A DNA stretch of 64,000 nt from an uncultured Lachnoclostridium sp. (GCA_937903005.1 CALFNR010000144.1:21948-85947), one strand, 5' to 3'; positions 20,536 to 63,247 are shown, counted from the stretch's first letter. A program made the numbers and translations. The notes: generated from the sequence alone by a model not told the origin.

Positions 20536-20559
20536 AGAGACAATAAGGAGGTTATCAAT

Positions 20560-20697
20560 TTGGAATGTATGAACTGTAAAAGATGGATCCGTACATCTAA
20601 AGAAATCAAGAAGGGTGATAAGGTAAGCTGCAAATGTGGCTGCGTTCATCTTTGCTTAGATAAAAATGAATATATATCAAGATGGAGGAAATTATAA
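20560..20697 (+). CDS. 45-aa Cys-rich zinc-ribbon-like peptide (not in ORF track)
   Basis: TTG 8 nt after AAGGAGG. MECMNCKRW..SCKCGCVHLC. Its TAA overlaps the nrdG ATG (TAATG). Confidence 0.4.
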   Translation: MECMNCKRWIRTSKEIKKGDKVSCKCGCVHLCLDKNEYISRWRKL

Positions 20698-21197
20698 TGA
20701 GATTTATGGATATAAAGCCCAATGATGTAATTAACGGTAAAGGAGTTATGGTGTCCGTCTGGCTTGCCGGTTGTCACCACCATTGTAAAGATTGTTTTAA
20801 TCCTGAAACTTGGAGCTTCAAAGCGGGCGAAAAATTTACTAACGACCATCTGAAATACGTATTGGAATTACTTGATAAGAATGGAATCAAGAGAGATTTA
20901 TCAATACTGGGTGGTGACCCGTTGGCTCCAGAGAATATCCAGGGAACTATTGGACTTTGCTCTTATATAAAATTAGCTAGGCCAGAAACAACAATCTATG
21001 TTTGGACCGGTTACACCTATGAGCAGCTTTTGGAGCGATATCCTAAGGAATGCTTTGATAAAATCGATATTTTAATCGATGGAAAGTTTGATGTGGAGCA
21101 AAAAGACCTTACTCTATTATTGAGAGGTTCCAGAAATCAAAGGATTATCGATGTAAAGAAGTCGAAAAAAGATTATGTAGTTGAGTTTACTATATAA
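20697..21197 (+). CDS. nrdG: anaerobic ribonucleotide reductase activating protein (radical SAM)
   Basis: CHHHCKDCFN is a CX3CX2C motif, with GGDPL. ATG 20697 preferred over the tracked 20682. Confidence 0.9.
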   Translation: MRFMDIKPNDVINGKGVMVSVWLAGCHHHCKDCFNPETWSFKAGEKFTNDHLKYVLELLDKNGIKRDLSILGGDPLAPENIQGTIGLCSYIKLARPETTIYVWTGYTYEQLLERYPKECFDKIDILIDGKFDVEQKDLTLLLRGSRNQRIIDVKKSKKDYVVEFTI

Positions 21198-21221
21198 ACA
21201 TTGATTATATAATATAAATAT
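21186..21221 (+). promoter_or_regulatory. class-A phage promoter cassette
   Basis: TTTACT-N16-TATAATATAAATAT. The -35 overlaps the nrdG 3' end. Confidence 0.65.
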
Positions 21222-22891: not shown

Positions 22892-23129
22892 GTCATTCTT
22901 CTTTTTTTATACAGAAAAAGGCCCTAGCTGCTTGCCAGAACCTTATCTATACAGAAATATTATTTAGACACAAACGCTCGAAACAGTAAACGTTTGGACA
23001 TCTGTTATTATAACGTATTTTTTACTAAAAGTACATATATATTTTAACAATACTAATTGTAAGGAATATTATGCAAAAAACTATGTACAAATGTTTTCAA
23101 TGTCTTAGAATGATCATATCATGTGGAAT

Positions 23130-23191
23130 ATATGTATAATTATAACATTTGTGTTAAAATTATACATATTTCTTGAAATATGTATACATAT
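23130..23191. promoter_or_regulatory. operator-like palindromes at the RiPP operon promoter
   Basis: ATATGTATAATT (23130-41) and AATTATACATAT (23158-69) form a perfect 12-bp inverted repeat. A 14-bp palindrome ATATGTATACATAT (23178-91) lies inside the promoter spacer. Confidence 0.6.
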
Positions 23192-23201
23192 ATACTATAA
23201 T
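23173..23201 (+). promoter_or_regulatory. sigma-A promoter of the RiPP operon
   Basis: TTGAAA-N17-TATAAT, 50 nt upstream of the ABC exporter ATG. Confidence 0.6.
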
Positions 23202-23251
23202 TTTTATTGTTTATTAATTTATTGACTTTATTTAATGTTATAAGGAGAATT

Positions 23252-25018
23252 ATGAAAAAATTCATTAATAAATTGGCGTTTGTTGCAAAAATTGTATTTA
23301 TTCAAAATCATATATACACACTAATATACATATTAGGAATACTTTTATCGGGGCTAGCTCCCGTTATACAATTATATATTCTAAATTACATTTTAAGGCT
23401 TATGGAGATCGCATTAACCCAGGGACTTAATGACAAATTGGTTCTAAATGGAGTATTAATTCTAGTATCAGAGGGTCTTATATTTACGTTTATTTATGTA
23501 ATTGATATGTTTAAAGATTTGCTTAATCAACTAATGATTGTGCGTGTGAATTATAATCTTCAGGAACAAATAATTAATAAGCTAAAAGATGTAGAAATTA
23601 GCGCATTTGAAGATCCTGAATTTTATGATAACTATTACAATGCTTCTGAACAATCACAGCAAGCTGTTACGCAAATAGTAAATACTGTAACTTATGGTGC
23701 TTCAATACTCATAAGTACATTGGGATATCTTCAAATAATCGCAAATTTTCACCTTGCAGCAATGTTTATAGTTCTCATATCATTTTTACCTAATATTATT
23801 TTTCATTATAAATTTCAAAGTAAAAAATACCAACTAATAGTGCGTGAAGCAAAAAATCAAAGAAAGCTAAATTACTATTATGATATTCTTGCCAAAAAGG
23901 AATATGTGAAAGAAAGCAAAATATACCCTTTACATAACTTTTTTGAAACTAAAAGAAAAATAACCTTTAAAAAATACTATGAACATTATAGAAAAATAAA
24001 TTCAAAAGAATTTAATGTAAACTTATTGCTAAATATGCTGGGACGAACTGGACGTTCACTCTGTATTATATGGATGTTTATTGATATTGTACATGGAAAT
24101 TACGATATTGCAGGATTTGCTACTTTTTTTAACGCTACATCATCTTTGGACAACTCTTTGAAGTCAATGGTAGCGTTTACTTCTATGGCAAAATCGTCTT
24201 GGATGATGTTGGACTTTTTTATGGACTTTTTGCAATATGAACCACGCTTAATAGGTGGGGAAATAAATGTGCAAAAGAGACAATCACATAAAATAGTGTT
24301 CGAGCATGTTTGGTTTCGATATCAAAATGAGGAGAGCTATGCTCTAAAGGATATCTCTCTTGAATTTAATACTGGCGAACTGACTGTGATATTAGGAATG
24401 AATGGAAGCGGAAAATCTACATTGCTTAAATTGTTACTAAGATTGTATGACCCTCAAAAAGGGAGTATTTTTCTGGATGATAACAATATAAAAAATTATA
24501 AACTAGATGAGTTATATTCCATCTATTCTGTAATATTTCAAGATTTTAATCGATACTCTGCGACACTCTATGAAAACTTAACATTTAGTATAAAACGTGA
24601 TCTTAATTTAAATCATCAATACATACTAGACCTTCTAAATTTTTTAGATACTTTAAGTGAAGGAGTAGACACTGAATTAACACAAGTTTTTGAAGAAGGA
24701 AGTGAATTATCTGGAGGACAATGGCAACGTGTAGCATTATCGAGAATGTTACTCAAAGATGCTGATATTATGATATTAGATGAACCAACCTCTGCCTTAG
24801 ATACGTTCTCAGAAAACTATATTTCAAATCTTCTTCGAAATCAAAAAAACAAGATGATTGTTTGTGTTACCCATAAATTATTCTGTATTGAGGAAGCAGA
24901 TAATATAGTGTTCCTAGAAGATGGGGAACTAATAAGCCAGGGAAAACATTCAATACTAATTAATTCCTGTGAGCAATATAGGCAATTATATAATCTACAA
25001 TTTGGGAATAAAGAATAG
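23252..25018 (+). CDS. ABC exporter, fused permease/ATPase (no C39 peptidase domain)
   Basis: N-terminal multi-TM half. Walker A GMNGSGKST, signature LSGGQWQR, Walker B IMILDEPTSALD. ATG 23252 follows AAGGAG. Confidence 0.9.
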   Translation: MKKFINKLAFVAKIVFIQNHIYTLIYILGILLSGLAPVIQLYILNYILRLMEIALTQGLNDKLVLNGVLILVSEGLIFTFIYVIDMFKDLLNQLMIVRVNYNLQEQIINKLKDVEISAFEDPEFYDNYYNASEQSQQAVTQIVNTVTYGASILISTLGYLQIIANFHLAAMFIVLISFLPNIIFHYKFQSKKYQLIVREAKNQRKLNYYYDILAKKEYVKESKIYPLHNFFETKRKITFKKYYEHYRKINSKEFNVNLLLNMLGRTGRSLCIIWMFIDIVHGNYDIAGFATFFNATSSLDNSLKSMVAFTSMAKSSWMMLDFFMDFLQYEPRLIGGEINVQKRQSHKIVFEHVWFRYQNEESYALKDISLEFNTGELTVILGMNGSGKSTLLKLLLRLYDPQKGSIFLDDNNIKNYKLDELYSIYSVIFQDFNRYSATLYENLTFSIKRDLNLNHQYILDLLNFLDTLSEGVDTELTQVFEEGSELSGGQWQRVALSRMLLKDADIMILDEPTSALDTFSENYISNLLRNQKNKMIVCVTHKLFCIEEADNIVFLEDGELISQGKHSILINSCEQYRQLYNLQFGNKE

Positions 25019-25060
25019 TGAAAACTAATCTATAAAATATATTAAAAGGGGAGTACATAT

Positions 25061-25246
25061 ATGTTAAAAAAATTAAATCATTCAAATGAATTGCAAAAAG
25101 GTAGCGCATTAGCCAAATGTGCATGTTTATGTATCTGTTTTGGTAGTAAAAAAGTAGGATTTGCCGTAACTGGTTCGGAAAATGGTATTCTTACAATGGC
25201 TGCATTAGATTTAGAAGAGGATATTTTAAACTTTATTCTAAAATAA
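25061..25246 (+). CDS. putative RiPP precursor peptide (61 aa, CxCxCxC)
   Basis: GGGGAG RBS. MLKKLNHSNELQKGSALAKCACLCICFGSKK.. Lies between the exporter and the radical-SAM maturase. Confidence 0.6.
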   Translation: MLKKLNHSNELQKGSALAKCACLCICFGSKKVGFAVTGSENGILTMAALDLEEDILNFILK

Positions 25247-25290
25247 ACCGTATAGTAATTTTATATTCTCATTATTCTTTATTCCTTAAT

Positions 25291-25321
25291 CTATAATAAG
25301 CAATAAAAATGCTTATTATAG
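25291..25321 (+). promoter_or_regulatory. perfect 12-bp stem hairpin between precursor and maturase genes
   Basis: CTATAATAAGCA-ataaaa-TGCTTATTATAG with no U-tract after it. Confidence 0.6.
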
Positions 25322-25350
25322 AGAAAATACTATGTAAGTTGGAGGAGACT

Positions 25351-26691
25351 ATGATATACAAGTTATTAACTGTTGACTCAGAAAAATATATATATGATGC
25401 ATATGATAACATTACCGTGCAAATAAGTGATGAATTATTCGATATGATTAATAATGGAATTTGTAATCATAGGTATCATGAACTTATAGAGCAGTTTGGT
25501 ATAAGAGATATATATCAGGATAAACACCTAAGCAGATCTGATTATGTTCATTCGGATGAATATAAATGGCAAGTGCAAAATTCTCAGAAACAATTAGTCC
25601 TTTCTATTACAGAAAATTGCAATATGAGATGTGAATACTGTGGTTATTATGATAAACGTTATGAAAAAAACGATCATAATATATCAGATTCTATGAGTGA
25701 ACATACTTTAAAAGCTGCCATTAAAAAATTCTTAACATGTTCCAGAGAAATGGATGTTGTATACATATCATTCTACGGTGGGGAACCTTTATTGAAGTTC
25801 GACCTAATACAAACAGCGGTTAAATTTGTAAGAGAAATGCATTATGGCCAGAAAATATGTTTTACAATTACAACAAATGGTCTTTTACTAACCCCAGATA
25901 TAGTTCAATTTTTTGTGGAAAACGATTTCACGATAACGATTAGTCTCGATGGACCAAAATATGTTCATGATAAATACCGCCTAGATGCAAATGGTAATGG
26001 TACTTATACAAGAATTATTAATAACATCATGTATATCAAAAAGAACTATATAAATTATTATGAACACAACATTCGTTATAATGTTGTACTGATAGAGCAT
26101 GACAAAAAAAATGAAATTGTTGATTTCTTTTACCACGAAAGTGTTAGCTATTTAGGTTTAAGTCTTACTAACCATTTTCGTGAAAAGTATAAAGACACAA
26201 TAAACTACTACAAAAATAAAGAAGTGCATTTAGGTGACGAAGTAGCTTCAGCTTTTTTTAATGTAGAAAAAGATATTAGACAACTAATCAAATTTTGTAA
26301 AATTGGAAGAGATGATGAACATAAAGTTTATATGCCCGCAGCCTATTGTTTACCATATGAAAGAAAGGTCTATGTTACTGCAAATGGTTCTCTGTATCCT
26401 TGCGAAAAAGTACCTGAAACTGCAAATTATATGTTGGGGAATCTTGAGGATTGGAACAATATCGAAGCTGTATCATCTGTAATTGAAAAAAGCTATAATA
26501 CTTATTGCAAAAAGTGTGCCAATTGTTGGGCTCAACGCTTTTGCGGAATGTGTTTTGCTAATGAATCAATAATTGAGGATAAGTGTGATGAAACACGTGC
26601 TAATATTGAGAAGAGCTATTCATTCTTCTTGAGTAAGGAATTTCAAGAAAGCAATATGTACAATAAATTATTACAAATTGGATTAGACTAG
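25351..26691 (+). CDS. radical SAM / SPASM-domain peptide maturase
   Basis: CNMRCEYCGYY (CX3CX2C), SFYGGEPLL, C-terminal Cys cluster ..SLYPCEKV..CKKCANCWAQRFCGMCF. ATG 25351 follows GGAGGAG. Confidence 0.85.
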   Translation: MIYKLLTVDSEKYIYDAYDNITVQISDELFDMINNGICNHRYHELIEQFGIRDIYQDKHLSRSDYVHSDEYKWQVQNSQKQLVLSITENCNMRCEYCGYYDKRYEKNDHNISDSMSEHTLKAAIKKFLTCSREMDVVYISFYGGEPLLKFDLIQTAVKFVREMHYGQKICFTITTNGLLLTPDIVQFFVENDFTITISLDGPKYVHDKYRLDANGNGTYTRIINNIMYIKKNYINYYEHNIRYNVVLIEHDKKNEIVDFFYHESVSYLGLSLTNHFREKYKDTINYYKNKEVHLGDEVASAFFNVEKDIRQLIKFCKIGRDDEHKVYMPAAYCLPYERKVYVTANGSLYPCEKVPETANYMLGNLEDWNNIEAVSSVIEKSYNTYCKKCANCWAQRFCGMCFANESIIEDKCDETRANIEKSYSFFLSKEFQESNMYNKLLQIGLD

Positions 26692-26723
26692 AAGCAAATA
26701 AATGAAGGGGAGGATAAATACAT

Positions 26724-28403
26724 ATGGATTTAAATAATATTAGTATGTATTCAGGAAAAAACAAAAGAATTGCCGTAATAGATACAGGCGTCGCATTAAA
26801 AAGTCCTAATATTCATCATTACATGGTTGACGCTCAAAATACTTTTAATGAATGCCACACTTCCTTCATCAAAAATATGCATGGGACATATTGTTCATTA
26901 AGAATTTTGAGTGAACTACCAGAGATAGAGCTTTATTCCTATTGTGCATGTAATAGGGATGGAGAGATAGATATTAATTTAGTGAAATTGGCTATAGAAT
27001 CTGCAATTCAAAACTCTGTTGACGTTATAAATATTAGTTTAAAATTTGATAAATTTTCAGAATCATTATATAATACCTGTAATAAGGCGTATGAAAGCAA
27101 TATCATTATTGTTGCTGCATCGGATGGAAACTTATCATATCCGGCTAATCAAAGAAATGTACTAAGTGTTAGTTCACAAAAATTATTAAAAGGTAATGAA
27201 GTTTTTATAGAATTTGAAAAAGGAAATATAATTCTATATGATAAAGACTTTACTTGTAATTTTGAAGGAAGAAGCATCGTTGTCCCTGTTTCTAGCAGTC
27301 TTGCAAGTGCATATTTAAGTTGCAAAATTATATCTGCAATAAATGAATATCCCCTACTATCTGGGAAAATGCTTTTCCGAAAACTATTAGGGGTTGATCT
27401 TTATTGTGATACTTGCCAAGAAATAGCTGATACAATAAATCCAAACACTTTAGTATTTGATTCATCATATGCATTTACTGAGTTACTAAAATTTCATAGC
27501 TGTATGAATAAAAATATTAAAGGTTACTATGACATATCTAAGGATATATTTACTGATTTTTCAGGAAATGAGTTATTAGATACTTCTGATAGTTTTCTAC
27601 TAGAAGTCAACTCTTCTATAAAAGAGAAAAATTCAGTATACGCTCAGAAAAGACTAAATATTGGTAACCATTCGCTTATTGGAAATTTTACCAATCCTGA
27701 AAATTATGACACCGTTACACTATTACAGCATAAACCGCCAGAGATAGCGTATATAGAAAAGATTAGTAAGCCTATAATTTGCATTTGCGGCTTTGGCCAT
27801 AGTAGTTCAAAGTTCTATACACAAGTAATGCTACATAAACAATTTCTTAATAAAAATAATGCACCTATTTCAATTACTTATAATTCTTTAGGGTACATAT
27901 TCGACTTTAAAGTGTTTAAATATCCTGAAAAGATAATACTTCCAGACTTAATCTATTCCATTAATCAGGATTTATACCTATATGATTCACAATATGTCGA
28001 TAACGATATTTTTATCATTGACATTGCTGGAGGTATCTGCCCTATTAATAATAAAAATAATAACAACTTTGGGAAGCTTTTTGATTCCTACACCGACGCT
28101 GCAAATATTGATATTGTGGTGTTATGTATTAACCAAGCAATTGATCCTATTGTAATTGAGCGCGAAATAAAGAGAATTGAAATGAAAGGCATACCATATA
28201 TCTATTTAGTAATTTCGAATGAATGTTACACGCAAGCGTCACTGGTGCATTCAGACGGCGTTAAGAGTGTATATAAAAATTCGATTTCTGAAAAAGAATT
28301 TTATTCAATGTATAAAGAGATATTTTACAAATACCCAACCTACTTTAAAAGTGACTTGGATAGCGGAAACTTGTTCAATGATATATATAAACTTTTTGTG
28401 TAA
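26724..28403 (+). CDS. subtilisin-like (S8) peptidase fused to a ~330-aa uncharacterised C-terminal domain
   Basis: IAVIDTGV (Asp), MHGTYCS (His), AASDGN (Asn), SSSLASAY (Ser) in the first ~220 aa. I recognise no motif in the rest. Confidence 0.7.
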   Translation: MDLNNISMYSGKNKRIAVIDTGVALKSPNIHHYMVDAQNTFNECHTSFIKNMHGTYCSLRILSELPEIELYSYCACNRDGEIDINLVKLAIESAIQNSVDVINISLKFDKFSESLYNTCNKAYESNIIIVAASDGNLSYPANQRNVLSVSSQKLLKGNEVFIEFEKGNIILYDKDFTCNFEGRSIVVPVSSSLASAYLSCKIISAINEYPLLSGKMLFRKLLGVDLYCDTCQEIADTINPNTLVFDSSYAFTELLKFHSCMNKNIKGYYDISKDIFTDFSGNELLDTSDSFLLEVNSSIKEKNSVYAQKRLNIGNHSLIGNFTNPENYDTVTLLQHKPPEIAYIEKISKPIICICGFGHSSSKFYTQVMLHKQFLNKNNAPISITYNSLGYIFDFKVFKYPEKIILPDLIYSINQDLYLYDSQYVDNDIFIIDIAGGICPINNKNNNNFGKLFDSYTDAANIDIVVLCINQAIDPIVIEREIKRIEMKGIPYIYLVISNECYTQASLVHSDGVKSVYKNSISEKEFYSMYKEIFYKYPTYFKSDLDSGNLFNDIYKLFV

Positions 28404-28454
28404 TAACTTACACTTAGTTAACTAAAATACTTTTGTTAAACAGGAAGGACAAAA

Positions 28455-29195
28455 ATGAACGAAAATTATATAAGAGGAATTATTAAAAAGAAGAATTTTG
28501 AACTTGATGATGAATATTACAATAGCATCGCTGCATTAAAAGACTTAAATAAGTTGGATTTTAATAGACCCGTCACATTTTTCGTTGGAGAAAATGGTAC
28601 TGGTAAATCTACTGTTTTAGAAGCAATCGCCGTTGCTCATGGTTTCAATCCAGAAGGTGGGAGTATAAACTTTAATTTTGAATCTAAAAGTACACATTCT
28701 AACCTATATAAGCAACTTACACTAGTTAAAGGAGCTAAGAGACCCAAGGATGGCTTTTTCTTACGTGCAGAGAGCTTTTATAATGTTGCTACCGAAATTG
28801 ATAATTTGAATGACTCTGCAGATGTATTTTTGGACAACTATGGCGGCAAGTCATTGCATAAACAATCTCACGGAGAGAGCTTTCTATCACTAATACAATA
28901 TAGATTTCATGGCAACGGATTATACCTGTTAGATGAACCAGAAGCTGCTTTATCGCCACAACGTCTCTTAACAATGCTCATATATATTAATAAATTAGTA
29001 CAAGAAAATTCACAATTCATAATCGTAACCCATTCTCCAATTTTACTAGGTTATAGAGATGCTGACATTTATTCATTTGACAACGGAGAAATTGAAAAAA
29101 TAAAGTACGAAGAAACCGAAAGTTATTTTATAACTAAAACATTTTTAGATGATCCAGATAGAATGCTGGCCAATCTATTTGACAACGATTATTAA
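28455..29195 (+). CDS. stand-alone ABC/SMC-head-like AAA ATPase
   Basis: Walker A GENGTGKST, SHGES signature-like loop, Walker B LYLLDEPEAALS, THSP. No TM or partner permease. Confidence 0.75.
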   Translation: MNENYIRGIIKKKNFELDDEYYNSIAALKDLNKLDFNRPVTFFVGENGTGKSTVLEAIAVAHGFNPEGGSINFNFESKSTHSNLYKQLTLVKGAKRPKDGFFLRAESFYNVATEIDNLNDSADVFLDNYGGKSLHKQSHGESFLSLIQYRFHGNGLYLLDEPEAALSPQRLLTMLIYINKLVQENSQFIIVTHSPILLGYRDADIYSFDNGEIEKIKYEETESYFITKTFLDDPDRMLANLFDNDY

Positions 29196-29268
29196 TTAAA
29201 TTAATTTGACTACTCAATATTTACAAGTTAGTTATCCTGAATCTCCTGTAGAATATAAAATTAGAAGT

Positions 29269-29345
29269 ATTTACCGCCTCCTTTATATAAAAAGGGGGCT
29301 CGCGAATCGCTACATCTAAGCTATAATATAAATACAGTGATTAAT
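29269..29345 (+). promoter_or_regulatory. class-B promoter
   Basis: ATTTACCGCC, GC box GGGGCTCGCGAAT (29295-29307), GCTATAATATAAATAC, AGTGATTAAT. Confidence 0.55.
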
Positions 29346-29376: not shown

Positions 29377-30408
29377 ATGAGAATAACAAAAAGATTTGAA
29401 ATTGGAAGTCAGCACTTAATGGCGAAAGGAACTCTTAAAGTAAAGAGCTACTTTGAAGAAAACGACATTTTATATATGGTTTACACTTTAAATGAAGACC
29501 CAACTGAATATACTAACAAATATGTAAATGTGATTTCTATCATTTACAAATGGCAAAAGAAAAATGGTATTACATCGGCAACTACTGTTGAAGAGTTCGT
29601 TGAATTAACATTAACAAGAAGTCTTAAATTTGGCCTAGAAATGGAGCTTACGGTTCCATCTAAAGAGCTTCTTAGAACAAAACTAATTGAAGCCGGCGTG
29701 AGAGTATCTAATCCATCATCTACACACGAAGTTGTTGTTGGTTGGAAACTAGTATATGATGGTTCAATCCAAACTTCTAGGGGTTATGAAGGCGTAGAGC
29801 TTGTTGCTCCACCAAGTACAAATTTTGATGAATTAGAAATCGTATGTAAAGTTCTTAATGAGATCGGAGCAAAAGTAAATAATTCTTGCGGGTTACACGT
29901 TCACCATGAAATCGCTGATTTCAAAAGACAACAAATTCTTAGAATGTACAATTTCTATAGCAAATATGAAGAGGTAATCAATAGCTTCATGCCTGCTTCA
30001 AGATTAAATAATAGATATTGTCAACCTGTTTCTAGAATCATCGATAAAGTAAATAACTGCCCTACTAAAGAAAAATTACTAAAAGATATTGCGGGTAAGG
30101 GTGCAAGAGGTTATTATGATAGTTGTAGATACTACACAATGAACTTAAGAAGTTACCTGTATTATGGTACCATTGAGTTCCGCCAACATGCTGGGTCTAC
30201 AAACTTCGAAGAAATCTCAAATTGGATTCTATTCACTCACAAAATCTTAGAAAGAGGATTAGAGATTGGAAACAATGTTCAACCATTAGATAGTAGCATT
30301 ACTACTAAAAAGGCTAAGTACGAAGAGCTTAAAAAGGAACTTAAAATTGAGAGAACTAAATTAGCAAAACACTTTGAAAATAGATTAAAGAAAGCGAGAG
30401 TGGCCTAA
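29377..30408 (+). CDS. putative amidoligase (Amidoligase_2, glutamine-synthetase-like fold) with N-terminal phage-specific domain
   Basis: GLEMELTVP, WKLVYDGSI, GVELVAPP, CGLHVHHE, YYTMNLRS, GTIEFRQHAGS. The N-terminal ~60 aa is paralogous to the ORF at 8765. Confidence 0.65.
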   Translation: MRITKRFEIGSQHLMAKGTLKVKSYFEENDILYMVYTLNEDPTEYTNKYVNVISIIYKWQKKNGITSATTVEEFVELTLTRSLKFGLEMELTVPSKELLRTKLIEAGVRVSNPSSTHEVVVGWKLVYDGSIQTSRGYEGVELVAPPSTNFDELEIVCKVLNEIGAKVNNSCGLHVHHEIADFKRQQILRMYNFYSKYEEVINSFMPASRLNNRYCQPVSRIIDKVNNCPTKEKLLKDIAGKGARGYYDSCRYYTMNLRSYLYYGTIEFRQHAGSTNFEEISNWILFTHKILERGLEIGNNVQPLDSSITTKKAKYEELKKELKIERTKLAKHFENRLKKARVA

Positions 30409-31935: not shown

Positions 31936-32066
31936 GCTTTATAGTTCTTGTAAATATCTAATTAAATGTTCCCGAATTTGCCCTTGCTATGTTATTATAT
32001 AAATCTACCAATCAATACATGCAGATTTTGGAGCTAGAATATGAAACTCACAGAGGAGGTTATAAT

Positions 32067-32438
32067 ATGGATTCAATAGGGGAACGTATTCGCAAATTAA
32101 GAAAATCAAAAGGAATTACACAAACAGAAATACAAGAAAAGACTGGTATTTCTTCAGGAAATATAAGTGAAATAGAAAATGGTAGGTATCTACCATCTGC
32201 TATCGCACTCATGGAGCTATCTAAAATTTTAGAGTGCTCGACTGATTATATCCTGTTTGGTGATTCTCACCCACCTAAAAGTACTAGCAATATTTCTAAT
32301 AATGAAATATATTTACTTAATGAACAAGAAGCTCGCTTATTAAATTATTATCGTGAAATATCTAAACCAGAACAAGAAGAACTAGTTTGTATTGCAAAGA
32401 TGAAATTTAATAAAGAATTGAGAATATTTGATATATAA
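32067..32438 (+). CDS. XRE-family HTH transcriptional regulator (candidate phage repressor)
   Basis: IGERIRKLRKSKGITQTEIQEKTGISSGNISEIENGRYLPS. ATG 32067 follows GAGGAGG. No S24 peptidase-like C-terminus. Confidence 0.85.
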   Translation: MDSIGERIRKLRKSKGITQTEIQEKTGISSGNISEIENGRYLPSAIALMELSKILECSTDYILFGDSHPPKSTSNISNNEIYLLNEQEARLLNYYREISKPEQEELVCIAKMKFNKELRIFDI

Positions 32439-32558: not shown

Positions 32559-33935
32559 TTGAAATCGTTATTTGTTATTCTAATTCTTCTATGCAGACTT
32601 ACAGAACCCTTTGTATGGGATTGGTTCTGTTCTAAGCTTGCGTGCACATTGGTTATAACAAATACAAAAGATAAAAAGAAAAGCTTATTACTATTCATTC
32701 TTGCTTGTTTTGGAAGTTTCCTGATAAGTGATTTTATTGGAGAATTAAACGTTCTATCATTCTTGTTTAATAACTCCTTAATAGTTATTTTTTACTTTTA
32801 TGCGGTTAGGGTTTATCATCTTAACTTCAAGATTGTTTGTGGCTGTTTATCTATTCACTACATATTTTCTTGCTTTACGGAGTATCTTCTTTCGTTCTTA
32901 CAGATTATTATTTTCAACTCATTAAGAATTACTTCGTTTGAACCGTCACTAACACGATGTATTATGTATATTATTTTTACGGTGCTTTCCTTCTTGGTTT
33001 TCTTTTTTCTATCAAGGTTGGATCTACATGCTCTTTGTGCCTTGGAGCATGACCGTATCTTTTATACTTTAGTTTTCGTTTTTACATTGGACATATTTGC
33101 CTTTTGCTTGTTTTCCTGTATTCCTAACGAAAACATTTTTAACATTGGGACATTTGTATCTCTTATGATAGAGGTAGCCGTTACTTGTCATGCTTTACGA
33201 ATGTTATTTCTGGATGTTAATACTTTAAGAAATTTTGAAACCGAATTACTTTGTACGAAAAATAGGCTTGAAATGTTTCAGTTTGACGCGGATAAATTAG
33301 AACAGACTTCTAAATTCATGCATGATGTGAAACACCACATTAATACAATTTCTTATTACCTGGAGCATGACGACATGAAGTCTGCAAAAGAGTATATTTC
33401 GGGTCTTACACCTGCTATGGACGATTTGCGTATCGAAGACTTTGGTTACAACCGCTTTAGCAACTTGATTCATAAGAAAGTACTTGAGGCTAAAAGTCAT
33501 GGGATTGATTTTACCTTTTCGAGCGAACTTATTGATTTAAAGATTCCACTTTATGAACTTAGTTCTGTATTTAACAATTTACTAGATAATGCAATCGAAG
33601 GGTGCCTGGCCAATACCGCCTCGACTTATCACAATATTTCCTTTTTCATTCGTAAAATGCCTACGGAAATATTGATTATTGTTATCAATGATTGCCTGCC
33701 TACTTTAGATGGTGTTCCTACTGGAACCACTAAAGACGATAAAGAAAATCACGGTTTTGGCATTGGTATTATTACTGATTTTGCATATAAGTATTCCGGT
33801 GATTCGTTTATTCTTGCGGAAGATAGTCTTTTTATGGTGCAAATAAGTTTACCTCTCAATTATGGGGTTTGGGAGGAAAACGATTCAATTGACACCGAAA
33901 TTACCGATTTAGAATCTTCACTTGATTTAACTTGA
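32559..33935 (+). CDS. agrC: AgrC-like membrane sensor histidine kinase (GHKL)
   Basis: ~200-aa polytopic N-terminus, H-box SKFMHDVKHHINTI, N-box FNNLLDNAIEG, G-box ENHGFGIGI. TTG start after a G-rich RBS. Confidence 0.75.
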   Translation: MKSLFVILILLCRLTEPFVWDWFCSKLACTLVITNTKDKKKSLLLFILACFGSFLISDFIGELNVLSFLFNNSLIVIFYFYAVRVYHLNFKIVCGCLSIHYIFSCFTEYLLSFLQIIIFNSLRITSFEPSLTRCIMYIIFTVLSFLVFFFLSRLDLHALCALEHDRIFYTLVFVFTLDIFAFCLFSCIPNENIFNIGTFVSLMIEVAVTCHALRMLFLDVNTLRNFETELLCTKNRLEMFQFDADKLEQTSKFMHDVKHHINTISYYLEHDDMKSAKEYISGLTPAMDDLRIEDFGYNRFSNLIHKKVLEAKSHGIDFTFSSELIDLKIPLYELSSVFNNLLDNAIEGCLANTASTYHNISFFIRKMPTEILIIVINDCLPTLDGVPTGTTKDDKENHGFGIGIITDFAYKYSGDSFILAEDSLFMVQISLPLNYGVWEENDSIDTEITDLESSLDLT

Positions 33936-34156: not shown

Positions 34157-35140
34157 CTACATTCCAAACGCTTCTAGCAATTTATCTGTGGATTTATCTT
34201 CAAGATAACTCTGTGTTGTGCTGATATCTGAATGATTAGCTAATAACTGCAGTTCTTGTAGTGTAAATCTCTTTCCTAACTTCTCGCACATGTAATGTGT
34301 TCCATTTTCATAGTTATTTAAAGAGCTGTGTCTGAAGCTGTGAGGATTAAACTCTTTTTCTACTCCCATTTCTTTTAATAAGATTTTTCTCCAACTTACG
34401 ATCTGGTTATATAAGGTTTCATAAGCTGCTGGTCCACCATGTCGAGTTTCCCATAAATGCTGTTCTTCATCATTTCTGTGCTCCATATATAAGCCATATG
34501 CTTCCTTAGTAAGTTGGTGATATATAAGACGGAACTTCTTACCTCTTTTTCCTGTTACCTCATTCTTTGTGAAATTAGCTTCGATTGAAATATCTTCTCT
34601 TGTTACCTGGAAAGCTTCGTTTCTACGACATGAGCTGTCATAAAGGAAGGCACAAAGTAAGGCCTCGGAATATCTTTCTTGTTTAACTAATGAATTGTAA
34701 ATGCACATTACTTCTTCGTTAGTCAAGAATATGATATCACGGGCCTTTTCTTTTCTAAGTCCTTTTAATCTATTTGGATTTACCTTGCAATCCTCGAAAT
34801 CCTCTTCGTAGTCATCATCTTCGGCCACAAAGTTGAAGAGGTTTCTGGTAGTTGATAGCATACGATTTATTCTCGCTGCACTCATACCGTTGTCTTGCAT
34901 CCATAACACGAAATTTCTTAGAGCCTTTCTGTTCAAGCGGTATAACTGCTTATTATCCAGTTCTTCCATTATATATATAAGAATTATTCTTGCGTCATTG
35001 TAATATTGCTTGATTGACTTTTCCGATTTTCCTTCGGAACGTATCTGTAGGATATAGTCGTCTAGTAGCTGTTTATTGTATTTATTTACTTTTTCCCATC
35101 TCTCTGGTGTATATATTCGATTATAGGTTTGTTTTGCCAT
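34157..35140 (-). CDS. tyrosine recombinase / phage integrase family
   Basis: N-terminal SAM-like domain. Catalytic pattern ..SSCRRNE.., HSFRHSS, LANHSDISTTQSYL. Confidence 0.9.
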   Translation of the reverse strand: MAKQTYNRIYTPERWEKVNKYNKQLLDDYILQIRSEGKSEKSIKQYYNDARIILIYIMEELDNKQLYRLNRKALRNFVLWMQDNGMSAARINRMLSTTRNLFNFVAEDDDYEEDFEDCKVNPNRLKGLRKEKARDIIFLTNEEVMCIYNSLVKQERYSEALLCAFLYDSSCRRNEAFQVTREDISIEANFTKNEVTGKRGKKFRLIYHQLTKEAYGLYMEHRNDEEQHLWETRHGGPAAYETLYNQIVSWRKILLKEMGVEKEFNPHSFRHSSLNNYENGTHYMCEKLGKRFTLQELQLLANHSDISTTQSYLEDKSTDKLLEAFGM

Positions 35141-35160: not shown

Positions 35161-36327
35161 CTATCTATAAAATTCTTGTGTCGCGTAAATCTTGTTACCG
35201 ATTTTGTAAACTCCAATACCAATACTAGAAAAGTTATTGGATAAGATATTTGCTCGATGTCCAGAAGAGTTCATCCAGTTAGTCATGAACTGTTGAGCTA
35301 ATCCAGATCTATTAGTCATCCAAGCAATATTTTCACCCCACGCTCGATAAGAAACTCCATCAGCCTTCATTTGCACTGTGATAAGATTTCCGTTTAGGTC
35401 CTCATGAGAGAAATAATTGTTATCCCCCATATCTTTAGATTTGATACGAGCGTATTTCTGCATTGTATTGTTATAAGATAGTGCTGGTAATCCATTCGCA
35501 GCTCTTTCTTTATTTACGATCTGGAATATCTCTTGCTCTACCGTAGCAATGAAATTAGATTCATTAACTTCTGGCTTAACTTCTGGTTTTGTTTCCGGCG
35601 TTACCTCTGGTTTAATGGAAGGCTTATCATTAGGTTTAATTACTGGAAATGACGGCCTTACTATTGGTGTACTAGGAATTTCAGATGGCTTTTCAACTGG
35701 CTTGTTAGGCGTTTCTGTTGAAGGCGGAGTCACTGGTTTATTTTCTGGAACTGGTGGTTTTTCTGTTGGTTCCTGAATGCCAGGTTCCTCACTTGGTTTT
35801 GTCTCTGGTTTTATAACCTCTTCTTCATCATCTGGCTTTGTTTCCGGCTTATCTTCCGGTTTGATTTCTGGCTTAATCTCTGGGTTTTCTTCCTTGTCTG
35901 GAACTACAACCGTGTCTTTATCCGGTTCCTTATTTGGTTTTTCAGTATTAACACTTGACTCTGGTTTCTCAGGTTTATTGAATGTGCCATTAATCACTGC
36001 GTCCACACTAACGATATTTTGTTGTATAGAACTAGAGATATGATTGAAATCTGGTATTTCACCTTTGACTTCCCCAGTCTCCTTATCAACGATTTCTAAA
36101 CCGTCTTTTCCTGGAATAATTGCGATATTCTCTGATACAAATAGATCTAAGCTAGATTCTCCTTCATTCTCATTGGAATCGGTTGAATTGTCTTGTTCGG
36201 TTTCTAATACGATTGCTTCATCTGTTGGTAAATTTGGTACTGTATCATTAGTAAAAGTATTTAATTGTGCAGCGCTCATGGCTACCATGATTGTCCCCAT
36301 TACAAATCCTAATACTTTCTTTTTCAT
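35161..36327 (-). CDS. secreted CAP/SCP (YkwD-like) domain protein with Pro/Glu/Lys-rich linker
   Basis: Signal peptide, KPEIKPEIKPEDKPETKP.. low-complexity linker, C-terminal CAP pattern (NKERAANGLPAL..YFSHE..GENIA..GHRANIL). Confidence 0.8.
   Translation of the reverse strand: MKKKVLGFVMGTIMVAMSAAQLNTFTNDTVPNLPTDEAIVLETEQDNSTDSNENEGESSLDLFVSENIAIIPGKDGLEIVDKETGEVKGEIPDFNHISSSIQQNIVSVDAVINGTFNKPEKPESSVNTEKPNKEPDKDTVVVPDKEENPEIKPEIKPEDKPETKPDDEEEVIKPETKPSEEPGIQEPTEKPPVPENKPVTPPSTETPNKPVEKPSEIPSTPIVRPSFPVIKPNDKPSIKPEVTPETKPEVKPEVNESNFIATVEQEIFQIVNKERAANGLPALSYNNTMQKYARIKSKDMGDNNYFSHEDLNGNLITVQMKADGVSYRAWGENIAWMTNRSGLAQQFMTNWMNSSGHRANILSNNFSSIGIGVYKIGNKIYATQEFYR
35577..35970 (-). repeat. coding low-complexity P/E/K/T repeat region
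   Basis: Repeated (K/E)P(E/D)xKP units. This creates the spurious + strand G/S-rich ORFs 35549..36403. Confidence 0.7.
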
Positions 36328-61931: not shown

Positions 61932-62731
61932 GTGTATATATCTATATTCACGCAAAAAAGAGGACCGCTTTGGACAGACTGGACGCCGTAACAGTATAAA
62001 CCGTATAAGGTCAGGCCACCCACCGCAAAAATTACAAGGAACGTCGTGAGACGATTCTGGGCCCGGTTCACTTCATATTACACTTGTATGAAGTGATGAC
62101 GTAAGTCCTATTGAAAGTAGCCTACAGGATGTTGAATCTGCGGATATTTAATTTATCTTAGTCCGAGAGGACAGTAAGCCGCTGTAAATTATTACATGCT
62201 TATGGATAAAGAGGTTGGTGTTTGGTTTGCATTAAATTTATTGTTTTACCAAGGATATGTATAGAAAATACGAAAGTATTGACTGGAAGGGCAAAACTCC
62301 AGTTTTGATATGCAATGTAGCTGAAATGCTGCATACTAAAGTGTTGTGTGCGTTGTCGTGTCGTAAACGTCAGACTGATGGCGGTAATAACCCCACATAT
62401 AGTTATTCTAGAGAAGATAAGCAGAACTCTATCTTTTTTTGCCTTTTCCCTAGGATAACTATATATATTGAAGAGCTGAAACGGTAATTATGCTTCGCTC
62501 GACTCACTGTAGTCAACATAAATATTAAATATATAGTTAATATATTAGTTCTTCAATTATATAGTTTATATATCAATAAATCTTTCAGATAGCGATATAT
62601 TAAGATATTGAAGGTATAAAGAATGAAGAAGCTAAGGGGAAGCATAAGTGCAATAACATTAAGAGCATGAAGACGGATCCTAATGATAGAATGAACATCT
62701 AAGTAATTCAGTAAGTAGTCATGGATTATTT

Positions 62732-63137
62732 AAAAATAACCTTTTGACAGTTAAGATTTTTCATGAAGCTATATATGTATATATATAATTACTTTTATTA
62801 CTTTAATACTTAGGACAAACTATTATGAAGTTAAGAGCTGTCAAACCGTGGAAAATCAAGGGGTTGCAGAGTTATCCACAACTACTTAAAAATAACCTAT
62901 CGACAGCTAATTATAACCTAAGGACAGTAATAAAATAACCTTTAGACAGTTTGGGATAATTTGATGATTTCAATAAAATAACCTTTAGACAGTCACCTCG
63001 TTTTGTCATAAAAAGTTATGCACATTTCCAGCATTTCATTAAAAATAACCTTTAGACAGTCAACAAATGGTGGATTCAATCTATTTAAAACGCCTCTTTG
63101 CTAGAATATATGTATTTAAAAATAACCTTTTGACAGT
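62732..63137 (+). repeat. iteron array of the plasmid-type origin (7 direct copies)
   Basis: AAAATAACCTTTWGACAGT at 62732, 62888, 62913 (degenerate), 62932, 62975, 63041 and 63118. An inverted half-site CTGTCAAA lies near 62838. Confidence 0.85.
62872..62880 (+). promoter_or_regulatory. perfect DnaA box
   Basis: TTATCCACA, between iterons 1 and 2. Confidence 0.6.
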
Positions 63138-63247
63138 CTCAATGAAAATCACTATGAATTATACTCATATTGAGCATTGACATACCTGCTAAAACACTAT
63201 AAAATTTAATTAAAATAACCCGAAAGAAGAAAGGTAATAGTTAGACT

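Follow-up and report, generated by a model that had tools for sequence, protein, structure and literature searches.

The stretch of DNA analysed here (the window; 64,000 nucleotides of one strand of CALFNR010000144.1, positions 21948–85947, in assembly GCA_937903005.1 of an uncultured Lachnoclostridium sp.) is phage DNA that contains an AT-rich island (22892–29288) of five plus-strand genes, a cassette of about 6.3 kb that is predicted to direct the synthesis of a peptide that is ribosomally synthesised and modified post-translationally (RiPP). The five open reading frames (ORFs) encode an ABC exporter, a short Cys-rich peptide, a radical S-adenosylmethionine (radical-SAM)/SPASM enzyme, a fusion protein with an S8-type protease domain, and a soluble ATPase (Table 1). 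The gaps between them measure 42, 104, 32 and 51 nt in gene order, and a Shine-Dalgarno site lies ahead of each gene. A first-pass annotation, made from the sequence alone, had proposed this order as one operon; the ORF listing located all five genes at exactly the positions it had given, and the Pfam matches (ABC_tran; Radical_SAM, Fer4_12 and a weak SPASM match; Peptidase_S8; AAA_21/AAA_15) bore out the domain assignments. The annotation had also described the island as richer in AT than its surroundings, and this was borne out: GC content is 29.0–32.5% in the island genes and 23.3% in the upstream spacer, as against 35–38% in the left-flank genes and 34.9% in the whole window, so that the AT-richness of the island is real but modest.

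Table 1. Features of the island and of its carrier element in the window.
Feature	Coordinates	Strand	Remarks
Upstream spacer, left edge of island	22892..23172	+	23% GC
G+C-rich hairpin in spacer	22918..22944		scored as minus-strand terminator
Perfect 12-bp palindrome	23161..23186		overlaps -35 hexamer
Sigma-70-type promoter-like site TTGAAA-N17-TATAAT	23173..23201	+	11/12 consensus matches
ABC exporter, 588 aa	23252..25018	+	PF00005; MsbA/HlyB-type full-length matches
Predicted precursor peptide, 61 aa	25061..25246	+	conserved family; no Pfam/NCBIfam match
Perfect 13-bp stem-loop, peptide–radical-SAM spacer	25290..25322	+	minimum free energy -23.4 kcal/mol for 126 nt, z = -2.6
Predicted radical-SAM/SPASM peptide maturase, 446 aa	25351..26691	+	PF04055; TIGR04068 best family
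S8-TIGR04066-like fusion, 559 aa	26724..28403	+	PF00082, NF049966, TIGR04066
Soluble ABC/SMC-type ATPase, 246 aa	28455..29195	+	AAA_21/AAA_15
First phage promoter cassette right of island, ahead of amidoligase gene	29289..29334	+	GGGGGCTCGCGAAT...GCTATAATATAAATA; right edge
Amidoligase_2 gene	29377..30408		PF12224; own cassette
XRE-type helix-turn-helix (HTH) gene	31989..32438		
AgrC-like membrane kinase	32559..33935		HATPase_c_5; ~6-7 transmembrane segments
Tyrosine recombinase	34157..35140		
CAP/SCP-domain protein	35161..36327	-	repeats 35565..35887
Six 21-25-bp direct repeats	62727..63139		AAAATAACCTTTAGACAGTCA
Rep3-family initiator	63248 to window end		PF01051, PF21205

The enzyme encoded by the third gene carries the CX3CX2C motif of radical-SAM proteins (C90, C94 and C97, in CNMRCEYC; PF04055, E = 5e-18). 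Its start at 25351 was preferred over an ATG at 25309 because GGAGGAG precedes the former, while the latter lies inside the 13-bp stem-loop that separates the peptide and enzyme genes. This hairpin is a candidate attenuator or mRNA stabiliser and could set the ratio of precursor to enzyme. The last 115 residues of the enzyme hold eight Cys (333, 351, 386, 389, 392, 398, 401 and 412) in the arrangement CX12GX4C ... CX2CX2CX5CX2C ... C, with C333-X17-C351 containing the GX4C element. Such a pattern is in keeping with a complete SPASM domain that holds two auxiliary Fe-S clusters. Of the domains that the first-pass annotation had named for checking, Radical_SAM and Peptidase_S8 (PF00082) were found; SPASM itself gave a weak Pfam match (18.4 bits, cut-off 21.5), and the SPASM maturase models align over the full length of the protein. 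The best NCBIfam match is to CcpM (TIGR04068; 254 bits, E = 3e-75, full-length alignment, cut-off 500), followed by the lachnocin maturase NF038170 (246 bits, positions 5–438 of 440, cut-off 550), GG_samocin TIGR04148 (179 bits, cut-off 300), PapB (168 bits, cut-off 340), RumMC (164 bits, cut-off 720), anSME TIGR03942 (131 bits, cut-off 349) and the SCIFF maturase (130 bits, cut-off 425). A grouping with the sulfatase maturases, which the annotation had named as evidence that would speak against its proposal, did not occur, as anSME ranks below five peptide-maturase families. The ranking places the enzyme among the thioether-forming peptide maturases, yet as a member of no curated equivalog. 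Its nearest solved structure is 5WGG (99 bits), which we take to be CteB, the SCIFF maturase. A search for homologues of the enzyme returned one cluster at 99% and then a small group at 35–41% identity.

The 61-aa product of the gene upstream (MLKKLNHSNELQKGSALAKCACLCICFGSKKVGFAVTGSENGILTMAALDLEEDILNFILK) contains the motif CACLCIC. A search with Pfam and NCBIfam up to E = 10 matched zero families, a word-indexed search of 5.8 billion proteins yielded nine peptide clusters, and a profile search that covered all of 1.84 billion representatives gave nine matches, one of them spurious. A 644-aa protein (P0136) was considered as a multi-core precursor and rejected as a spurious repeat protein that matches the peptide profile. 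In an alignment of nine sequences M1, K4, N6, A18, C20, C22, C24, C26, F27, G38, M46, A47, A48 and L51 are invariant, the family being marked by four Cys spaced i,i+2 and by an M-A-A motif; these Cys are kept across clusters whose enzymes are only 28–41% identical. Contrary to the absence from homologous clusters that the first-pass annotation had listed as damaging to its proposal, the peptide ORF is conserved and stands directly upstream of the radical-SAM gene in nine clusters. The exact 61-aa sequence is present on at least 22 contigs. When the core pattern AKCxCxCxCF was back-translated and scanned against species genomes and viral contigs, true members were found in 2 of 185,579 species-representative genomes (the other 35 of the 37 matches arose by chance), and the 2.9 million IMG/VR viral contigs contained no true member, with two chance matches only. 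As judged from these alignments and searches, the peptide represents a real, rare and undescribed precursor family.

The N-terminal part of the fourth gene product is a QhpE-like subtilisin (QhpE, a protease of leader type, is its best NCBIfam model, below cut-off) and is predicted to be the leader peptidase. Residues D20, H53 and S190/S192 of this domain are invariant in nine homologues, and Foldseek matched the N-terminal half to subtilisins and recovered nothing else. The C-terminal part of about 320 residues (about 235–559) matches TIGR04066 in all nine members (best E = 1.8e-22) at 60–64 bits, against a cut-off of 200, and is probably a distant TIGR04066 homologue. The AlphaFold model of the fusion has a pLDDT of 60.7 owing to a shallow alignment, with a low-confidence C-terminal domain of Rossmann-like beta-alpha-beta form; a profile search of this domain against the PDB returned only pentatricopeptide-repeat artefacts, with zero stretches passing alone. 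The exporter combines an N-terminal membrane domain with transmembrane-like segments and a C-terminal ATPase (PF00005, E = 4e-31). Pfam detected no C39 peptidase domain in it, which fits a separate leader protease.

The ATPase, whose conserved gene closes the cluster, is devoid of transmembrane segments, and the only proteins that it resembles are ABC/SMC ATPases of a generic kind, PtuA and ABCE1 among them. It follows the S8 fusion in seven of the eight other peptide-bearing contexts, at 51–56% identity. Members of the same family occur as stand-alone genes, at 53–58% identity, on plasmids of many phyla, among them those of Clostridium, Paenibacillus, Caballeronia, Pseudomonas and Streptomyces, an unusually high conservation for a stand-alone gene. 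The conservation of the ATPase had been considered as a sign of a cluster-specific role, and this was rejected since the stand-alone copies are equally conserved. Two of three stand-alone contexts (L070–L072) adjoin LanFEG-type lantibiotic-immunity or BceAB-type resistance modules. A contribution of the ATPase to self-protection is a guess. It is very unlikely that the island, or at least its ATPase, serves in anti-phage defence or superinfection exclusion, with the RiPP annotation being incidental. The ATPase does match PtuA, AriA, GajA and MAD3-type ATPases (PADLOC, PDB), and phage accessory islands often hold defence genes; however, these matches are to the generic ABC/SMC P-loop over partial stretches (20–70 bits), the island contains no nuclease or other effector partner, and the radical-SAM enzyme matches pVip at 55 bits as against 254 bits for the RiPP maturase. 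Moreover, a defence function would leave the conserved precursor peptide and the exporter unexplained.

The five-gene order of the island recurs in seven other contexts (L013, L014, L017, L018, L021, L047 and L053), while a further one (L011) carries the first four genes without the ATPase. Identity to the window is 33–39% for the exporter, 41–45% for the peptide, 35–41% for the radical-SAM enzyme, 28–34% for the S8 fusion and 51–56% for the ATPase. The exporter orthologues occupy the same position in eight other clusters, and 9 of 11 clusters have an exporter gene ahead of that for the peptide. The genomic settings differ: L013 and L014 adjoin integrase, CHAP and TraG-like genes and are ICE-like (resembling integrative and conjugative elements); L017 lies on a 137-kb chromosomal contig with nitrogenase genes; L018–L020 are plasmid-like, with MobC/NikA; L047 and L053 belong to metagenome-assembled genomes (MAGs) of Clostridiales and of Anaeromicropila (family Lachnospiraceae), respectively; and L021 holds the same collinear five-gene set. 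A phage, a Mob plasmid and an ICE-like element carry the same cassette, as do chromosomes, which shows that it moves as a unit. Directly downstream of the cluster in L013 and L014 lies an ABC-2 transporter of the bacteriocin-immunity type, and HTH-LytTR-kinase modules, which are typical of bacteriocin regulation, adjoin the clusters in L016 and L018. L016 (MT836234.1, 2548–11065) is an unverified human-fecal 'Bacteriophage sp.' contig of 11.7 kb that carries a distant relative of the whole cluster (28–30% identity), including a 45-aa peptide with ACHCSCEG. Its HTH, LytTR and kinase genes follow the cluster on the same strand and are 55–68% identical to the L018 module; no phage structural genes were seen in its examined part.

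Pairs of radical-SAM and S8-TIGR04066 genes that are 33–37% identical to those of the window also occur as orphans, in L012 (8001–11042) and L015 (8001–11069). These pairs are found in a conserved chromosomal context (Band_7 ... SpoIIID, MatE, GMP synthase). Such settings, as well as the best NCBIfam match of the S8 domain to QhpE, the protease of quinohemoprotein amine dehydrogenase maturation, and the presence of QhpD-type radical-SAM enzymes among the matches, would be compatible with a role of the peptide in cell physiology (redox or metal-binding, or cofactor-like, following QhpC/QhpD/QhpE-type logic). We consider this role unlikely, however, as none of the QhpE/QhpD scores comes near its cut-off, most clusters have a dedicated ABC exporter ahead of the peptide, and the rare, patchy distribution on mobile elements is unlike that of a housekeeping function.

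The first-pass annotation had set the island apart from the phage by its own TTGAAA-N17-TATAAT promoter and by the absence of the phage's promoter cassettes, and both statements agree with what was found. The cassette sequence ATAATATAAATA occurs 26 times in the window against 2.9 expected, with exact copies on either side of the island (20523 and 21209 on the left; 29323, 30761 and 31536 on the right). Between 21220 and 29323 there are zero exact copies and a single intragenic site with one mismatch, at 28048. The promoter is present as a consensus match, its score being the joint best within 20–32 kb. Its evidential value derives from a second phage lineage that carries the island (L003/L005, which diverges from the window after 30603): in L003 the core promoter is 100% identical, whereas the spacer up to the exporter gene (22892–23251) differs by 15 substitutions, 13 of which fall within about 100 nt directly upstream of the -35 hexamer. 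A palindrome overlaps this hexamer, and a hairpin lies further upstream in the spacer (Table 1). Upstream of the promoter lies an inverted repeat of 18 bp; its reading as an operator was dropped because one of its arms is mutated in L003.

Two classes of phage promoter cassette, with TATAATATAAATA common to both, can be distinguished in the window. In the first, AGTTTAC stands about 17 nt upstream of TATAATATAAATA (at least nine copies, in the left arm, 1120–21248); in the second, GGG(C/G)GCTCGCGAAT is found upstream (three copies directly right of the island, at 29289, 30727 and 31502). The classes may mark temporal classes or a phage-specific sigma factor or activator. Additionally, metagenome assemblies of this phage break repeatedly at about 23185–23195, in the spacer before the exporter gene: contigs L025–L030 run past the guanylate kinase gene and terminate in the spacer, L007, L009 and L010 begin 66 nt before the exporter gene, and in one sample the two pieces broken at the spacer have equal coverage (14.8x and 15.3x). 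Extreme AT content together with palindromes (TATACATATTTC/GAAATATGTATA) is the likely cause of these breaks, while population heterogeneity may be an alternative one.

Comparison of the two lineages also bears on the age and maintenance of the island. DNA identity between them is 97.8–98.9% in the island genes and 94.7–99.5% in the left flank; since the island has diverged to the same degree as the left flank, it predates the split of the lineages and is not a very recent insertion, and the idea that it is younger than its flanks was rejected. The ratio of non-synonymous to synonymous differences (pN/pS) relative to L003 is 0.06 for both the exporter and the radical-SAM enzyme and 0.00 for the peptide (two synonymous and zero non-synonymous differences); it amounts to 0.14 in the ATPase and 0.21 in the S8 fusion. 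These ratios indicate that the island is under purifying selection and is maintained in the phage. That the island is decaying cargo whose product is no longer made would be in keeping with the frequent assembly breaks in its upstream spacer, but is scarcely credible given that all ORFs are intact, the catalytic motifs are kept, the pN/pS values are low (0.00–0.21) and the core promoter is identical in both lineages. In L003/L005 the nrdG gene with its own cassette (20537–21201) is precisely absent while nrdD is kept, and this cassette-bounded indel indicates that promoter cassettes delimit exchangeable modules. The amidoligase gene to the right of the island has 89% DNA identity between the lineages (0.39 synonymous differences per site, pS) and is thus far more diverged than anything on its left. 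A search for an empty site, that is, a related phage without the island, by means of the exact DUF1064 protein found none: every contig that does not hold the island breaks off in the spacer.

The island lies inside a bona fide phage genome, with phage cassettes on both sides. The window also encodes TerL, a portal protein, the major capsid protein, a tape measure protein, a tail endopeptidase and an amidase lysin, as well as a nucleotide-metabolism block (DnaE, NrdD, NrdG, FolD and guanylate kinase). The DnaE is 58% identical to that of the Clostridioides phage pCD1602_4 and about 45% identical to those of large Bacillus siphoviruses. At the end of the window the direct repeats stand immediately upstream of the Rep3-family gene (Table 1), and repeats and initiator together have the sequence features of an iteron-type plasmid origin. 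The combination of Rep3 and iterons with phage structural genes makes the element look like a phage-plasmid, which may be at least as likely as an integrated prophage. The description of the carrier as a prophage in the first-pass annotation is thus right as to the phage genes and loose as to the integrated state, Rep3 and iterons being present beside a tyrosine recombinase. When the island was compared by megablast with 50,697 phage records, none matched it at the DNA level, no close relative of the cluster was found among the INPHARED phages save the unverified L016, and a scan of IMG/VR with the S8 fusion yielded no confirmed relative. A Logan contig and the MAG GCA_003484745.1, which bears the label Lachnospiraceae bacterium, hold the same sequence (100% and 99.99%). 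Further to the right, the XRE-type HTH gene is accompanied by the AgrC-like kinase gene, which comes without a response regulator; at the same end of L003 (17300–19368) a LytTR regulator and a kinase (26% identical) lie on the opposite strand. The HTH protein and AgrC-like kinase are a possible phage-borne quorum-sensing module. The CAP/SCP-domain protein, whose gene adjoins that of the tyrosine recombinase, is possibly a secreted lysogenic-conversion factor.

The first-pass annotation had raised a possible relation to CcpM-type systems. In published CcpM-type clusters TIGR04068, TIGR04066, TIGR04069 (an acyl carrier protein (ACP)-like protein), a subtilase and an ABC transporter occur together, as in Roseburia intestinalis L1-82 (PMC4573289). 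Similarly, the SacP23 cluster of Paenibacillus polymyxa comprises ABC, TIGR04068, TIGR04066, TIGR04069 and subtilase genes and a 61-aa Cys-rich precursor of the CLI_3235 family, and supernatant of B. subtilis into which the whole cluster had been cloned was active against methicillin-resistant Staphylococcus aureus (PMC10731318). The island shares with these systems a radical-SAM enzyme nearest to TIGR04068, a TIGR04066-like domain, a subtilisin, an ABC exporter, a Cys-rich precursor of about 61 aa and a clostridial/Lachnospiraceae host range. It differs from them in several respects. Its radical-SAM and TIGR04066 scores (254 bits against 500, and 60–64 against 200) are below the cut-offs, and its subtilisin and TIGR04066-like domain are fused in one protein. 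It has no gene for a TIGR04069 ACP-like protein (no NCBIfam match to TIGR04069 among the five proteins, and gaps of at most 104 nt with no other non-overlapping ORF), and its precursor matches no CLI_3235/TIGR04065 family at E up to 10. Finally, clusters of its type regularly include a soluble AAA_21 ATPase as an additional component. The proposed relation therefore stands as regards the best match of the enzyme and the TIGR04066-like domain, and falls short as regards the cut-offs, the ACP-like partner and the CLI_3235 precursor. From its gene and domain content the island would be classed as a variant CcpM-type RiPP cluster, CcpM-like but of a distinct sub-architecture.

The likeness extends to other families. 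The lachnocin maturase is the second-best match of the enzyme and its host family is likewise Lachnospiraceae, although the island enzyme scores below the cut-off of 550 and the precursor matches no curated model. As in sactipeptide and ranthipeptide systems, a radical-SAM/SPASM gene adjoins that of a Cys-bearing precursor, and the RumMC, PapB and SCIFF models match (164–130 bits). The island peptide differs from these in its i,i+2 Cys spacing (CxCxCxC), and the system in a subtilisin leader protease fused to an extra domain. In thurincin H the Cys are spaced i,i+3, and freyrasin has CxxxD-type repeats. No characterised counterpart of the i,i+2 Cys ladder was found; in having four donor Cys, the island peptide is like thurincin H (PMC8326336). 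Functional bacteriocin clusters are already known from temperate phages, for example those of Bacillus subtilis (summarised in PMC13500778). The island is similar to these in being a complete cluster of bacteriocin type within a temperate phage, as lysogenic-conversion cargo, and differs in being a radical-SAM/SPASM RiPP cluster, in its gut/digester Lachnospiraceae host and in a carrier with Rep3 and iterons.

Taken together, we propose, with a probability of roughly 0.55, that the island is a complete and functional RiPP cluster, carried as cargo by a large temperate phage or phage-plasmid of gut Lachnospiraceae and expressed from its own host-type promoter, whose product would be a thioether-bridged peptide and most likely a bacteriocin. 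In the pathway that we infer, the 61-aa precursor would be bound through its conserved N-terminal K-L-N leader, and the radical-SAM/SPASM enzyme would cross-link C20, C22, C24 and C26 to carbons elsewhere in the peptide, forming thioether bridges of the sacti- or ranthi-type. The subtilisin domain of the fusion would then remove the leader, and the exporter, which has no peptidase domain, would secrete a narrow-spectrum bacteriocin that benefits the phage-carrying cells, with the conserved soluble ATPase perhaps aiding self-protection. The earlier proposal of a modified peptide, either a bacteriocin or a signal, thus holds in those parts that can be tested in silico. The data show gene content, synteny, conservation and purifying selection, while the thioether chemistry, the sequence of the steps, the function as bacteriocin or signal and the part played by the ATPase are what we infer. 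A bacteriocin is favoured because of the dedicated exporter, the rarity of the clusters and their patchy occurrence on mobile elements, the transporter of ABC-2 immunity type in L013 and L014, the HTH-LytTR-kinase modules in L016 and L018, the SacP23 precedent and the existence of phage-borne bacteriocin clusters.

Several observations weigh against this proposal. Promoter-like sites occur in AT-rich DNA at the rate expected by chance (61 found, 62 expected from shuffles), so that the island promoter alone is a consensus match and not proof of function. The Cys motif has a central position in the precursor and is followed by 35 residues, which blurs the limits of leader and core, and as a weak hint the alignment of nine peptides contains no conserved Asp, Asn, Glu or Thr acceptor, because of which the type of cross-link cannot be guessed. 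Apart from the ATPase, whose family also occurs stand-alone, the island holds no recognisable immunity gene. Furthermore, the orphan gene pairs in L012 and L015 have no exporter, ATPase or family CxCxC peptide within 8 kb, and several clostridial thioether RiPPs, SCIFF among them, are not regarded as antibiotics (PMC8326336).

The modified peptide might instead be a signal or autoinducer, possibly sensed by the phage's AgrC-like kinase, that reports lysogen density or steers phage or host. This is a plausible but clearly less probable alternative, to which the kinase and XRE-type HTH genes 3.3 kb downstream of the island, the LytTR regulator and kinase at the same end of L003/L005 and the kinases or HTH-LytTR-kinase modules near the clusters in L011, L016 and L018–L020 lend support, as does the link of SCIFF ranthipeptides to quorum sensing (PMC8326336). 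However, between the island and the kinase gene stand four genes that have phage cassettes of their own, the window kinase is only 24–30% identical to the kinases beside other clusters, and no such kinase was seen in the examined sequence of L013, L017, L047 and L053. Modules of this kind commonly regulate bacteriocin operons. In addition, the modules of L016 and L018 are similar (55–68% identity) despite very different peptides (45 aa with CHCSC and 64 aa with CICTCVC, respectively), which suggests that they act as regulators of the clusters and not as sensors of what the clusters make.

A bacteriocin remains the preferred product, and a more speculative extension, to which we assign little confidence, concerns its structure. 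The CxCxCxC peptide could be a structurally new thioether RiPP, in which the Cys on one face of a beta-strand are stapled as a ladder to the next strand by a radical-SAM and protease-TIGR04066 set that works without an ACP-like partner. A phage-plasmid would thereby favour its carriers, by killing non-carriers or through self-retention, and the ATPase would be a new self-protection factor.

Neither the type of pathway nor the fact that phages carry cassettes of this kind is new, and the finding overturns no current view; it is the peptide family that is rare and undescribed. If active, the compact, self-promoted five-gene cassette would be an easy target for heterologous expression and could reveal a new cross-link topology. 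It also provides a handle on CcpM-type systems, as the TIGR04066 domain is here physically fused to the predicted leader protease. In ecological terms, an active cluster would be a further case, from gut/digester Lachnospiraceae, among the few bacteriocin clusters known from phages, and would bear on the influence that temperate phages and phage-plasmids have on competition within anaerobic communities.

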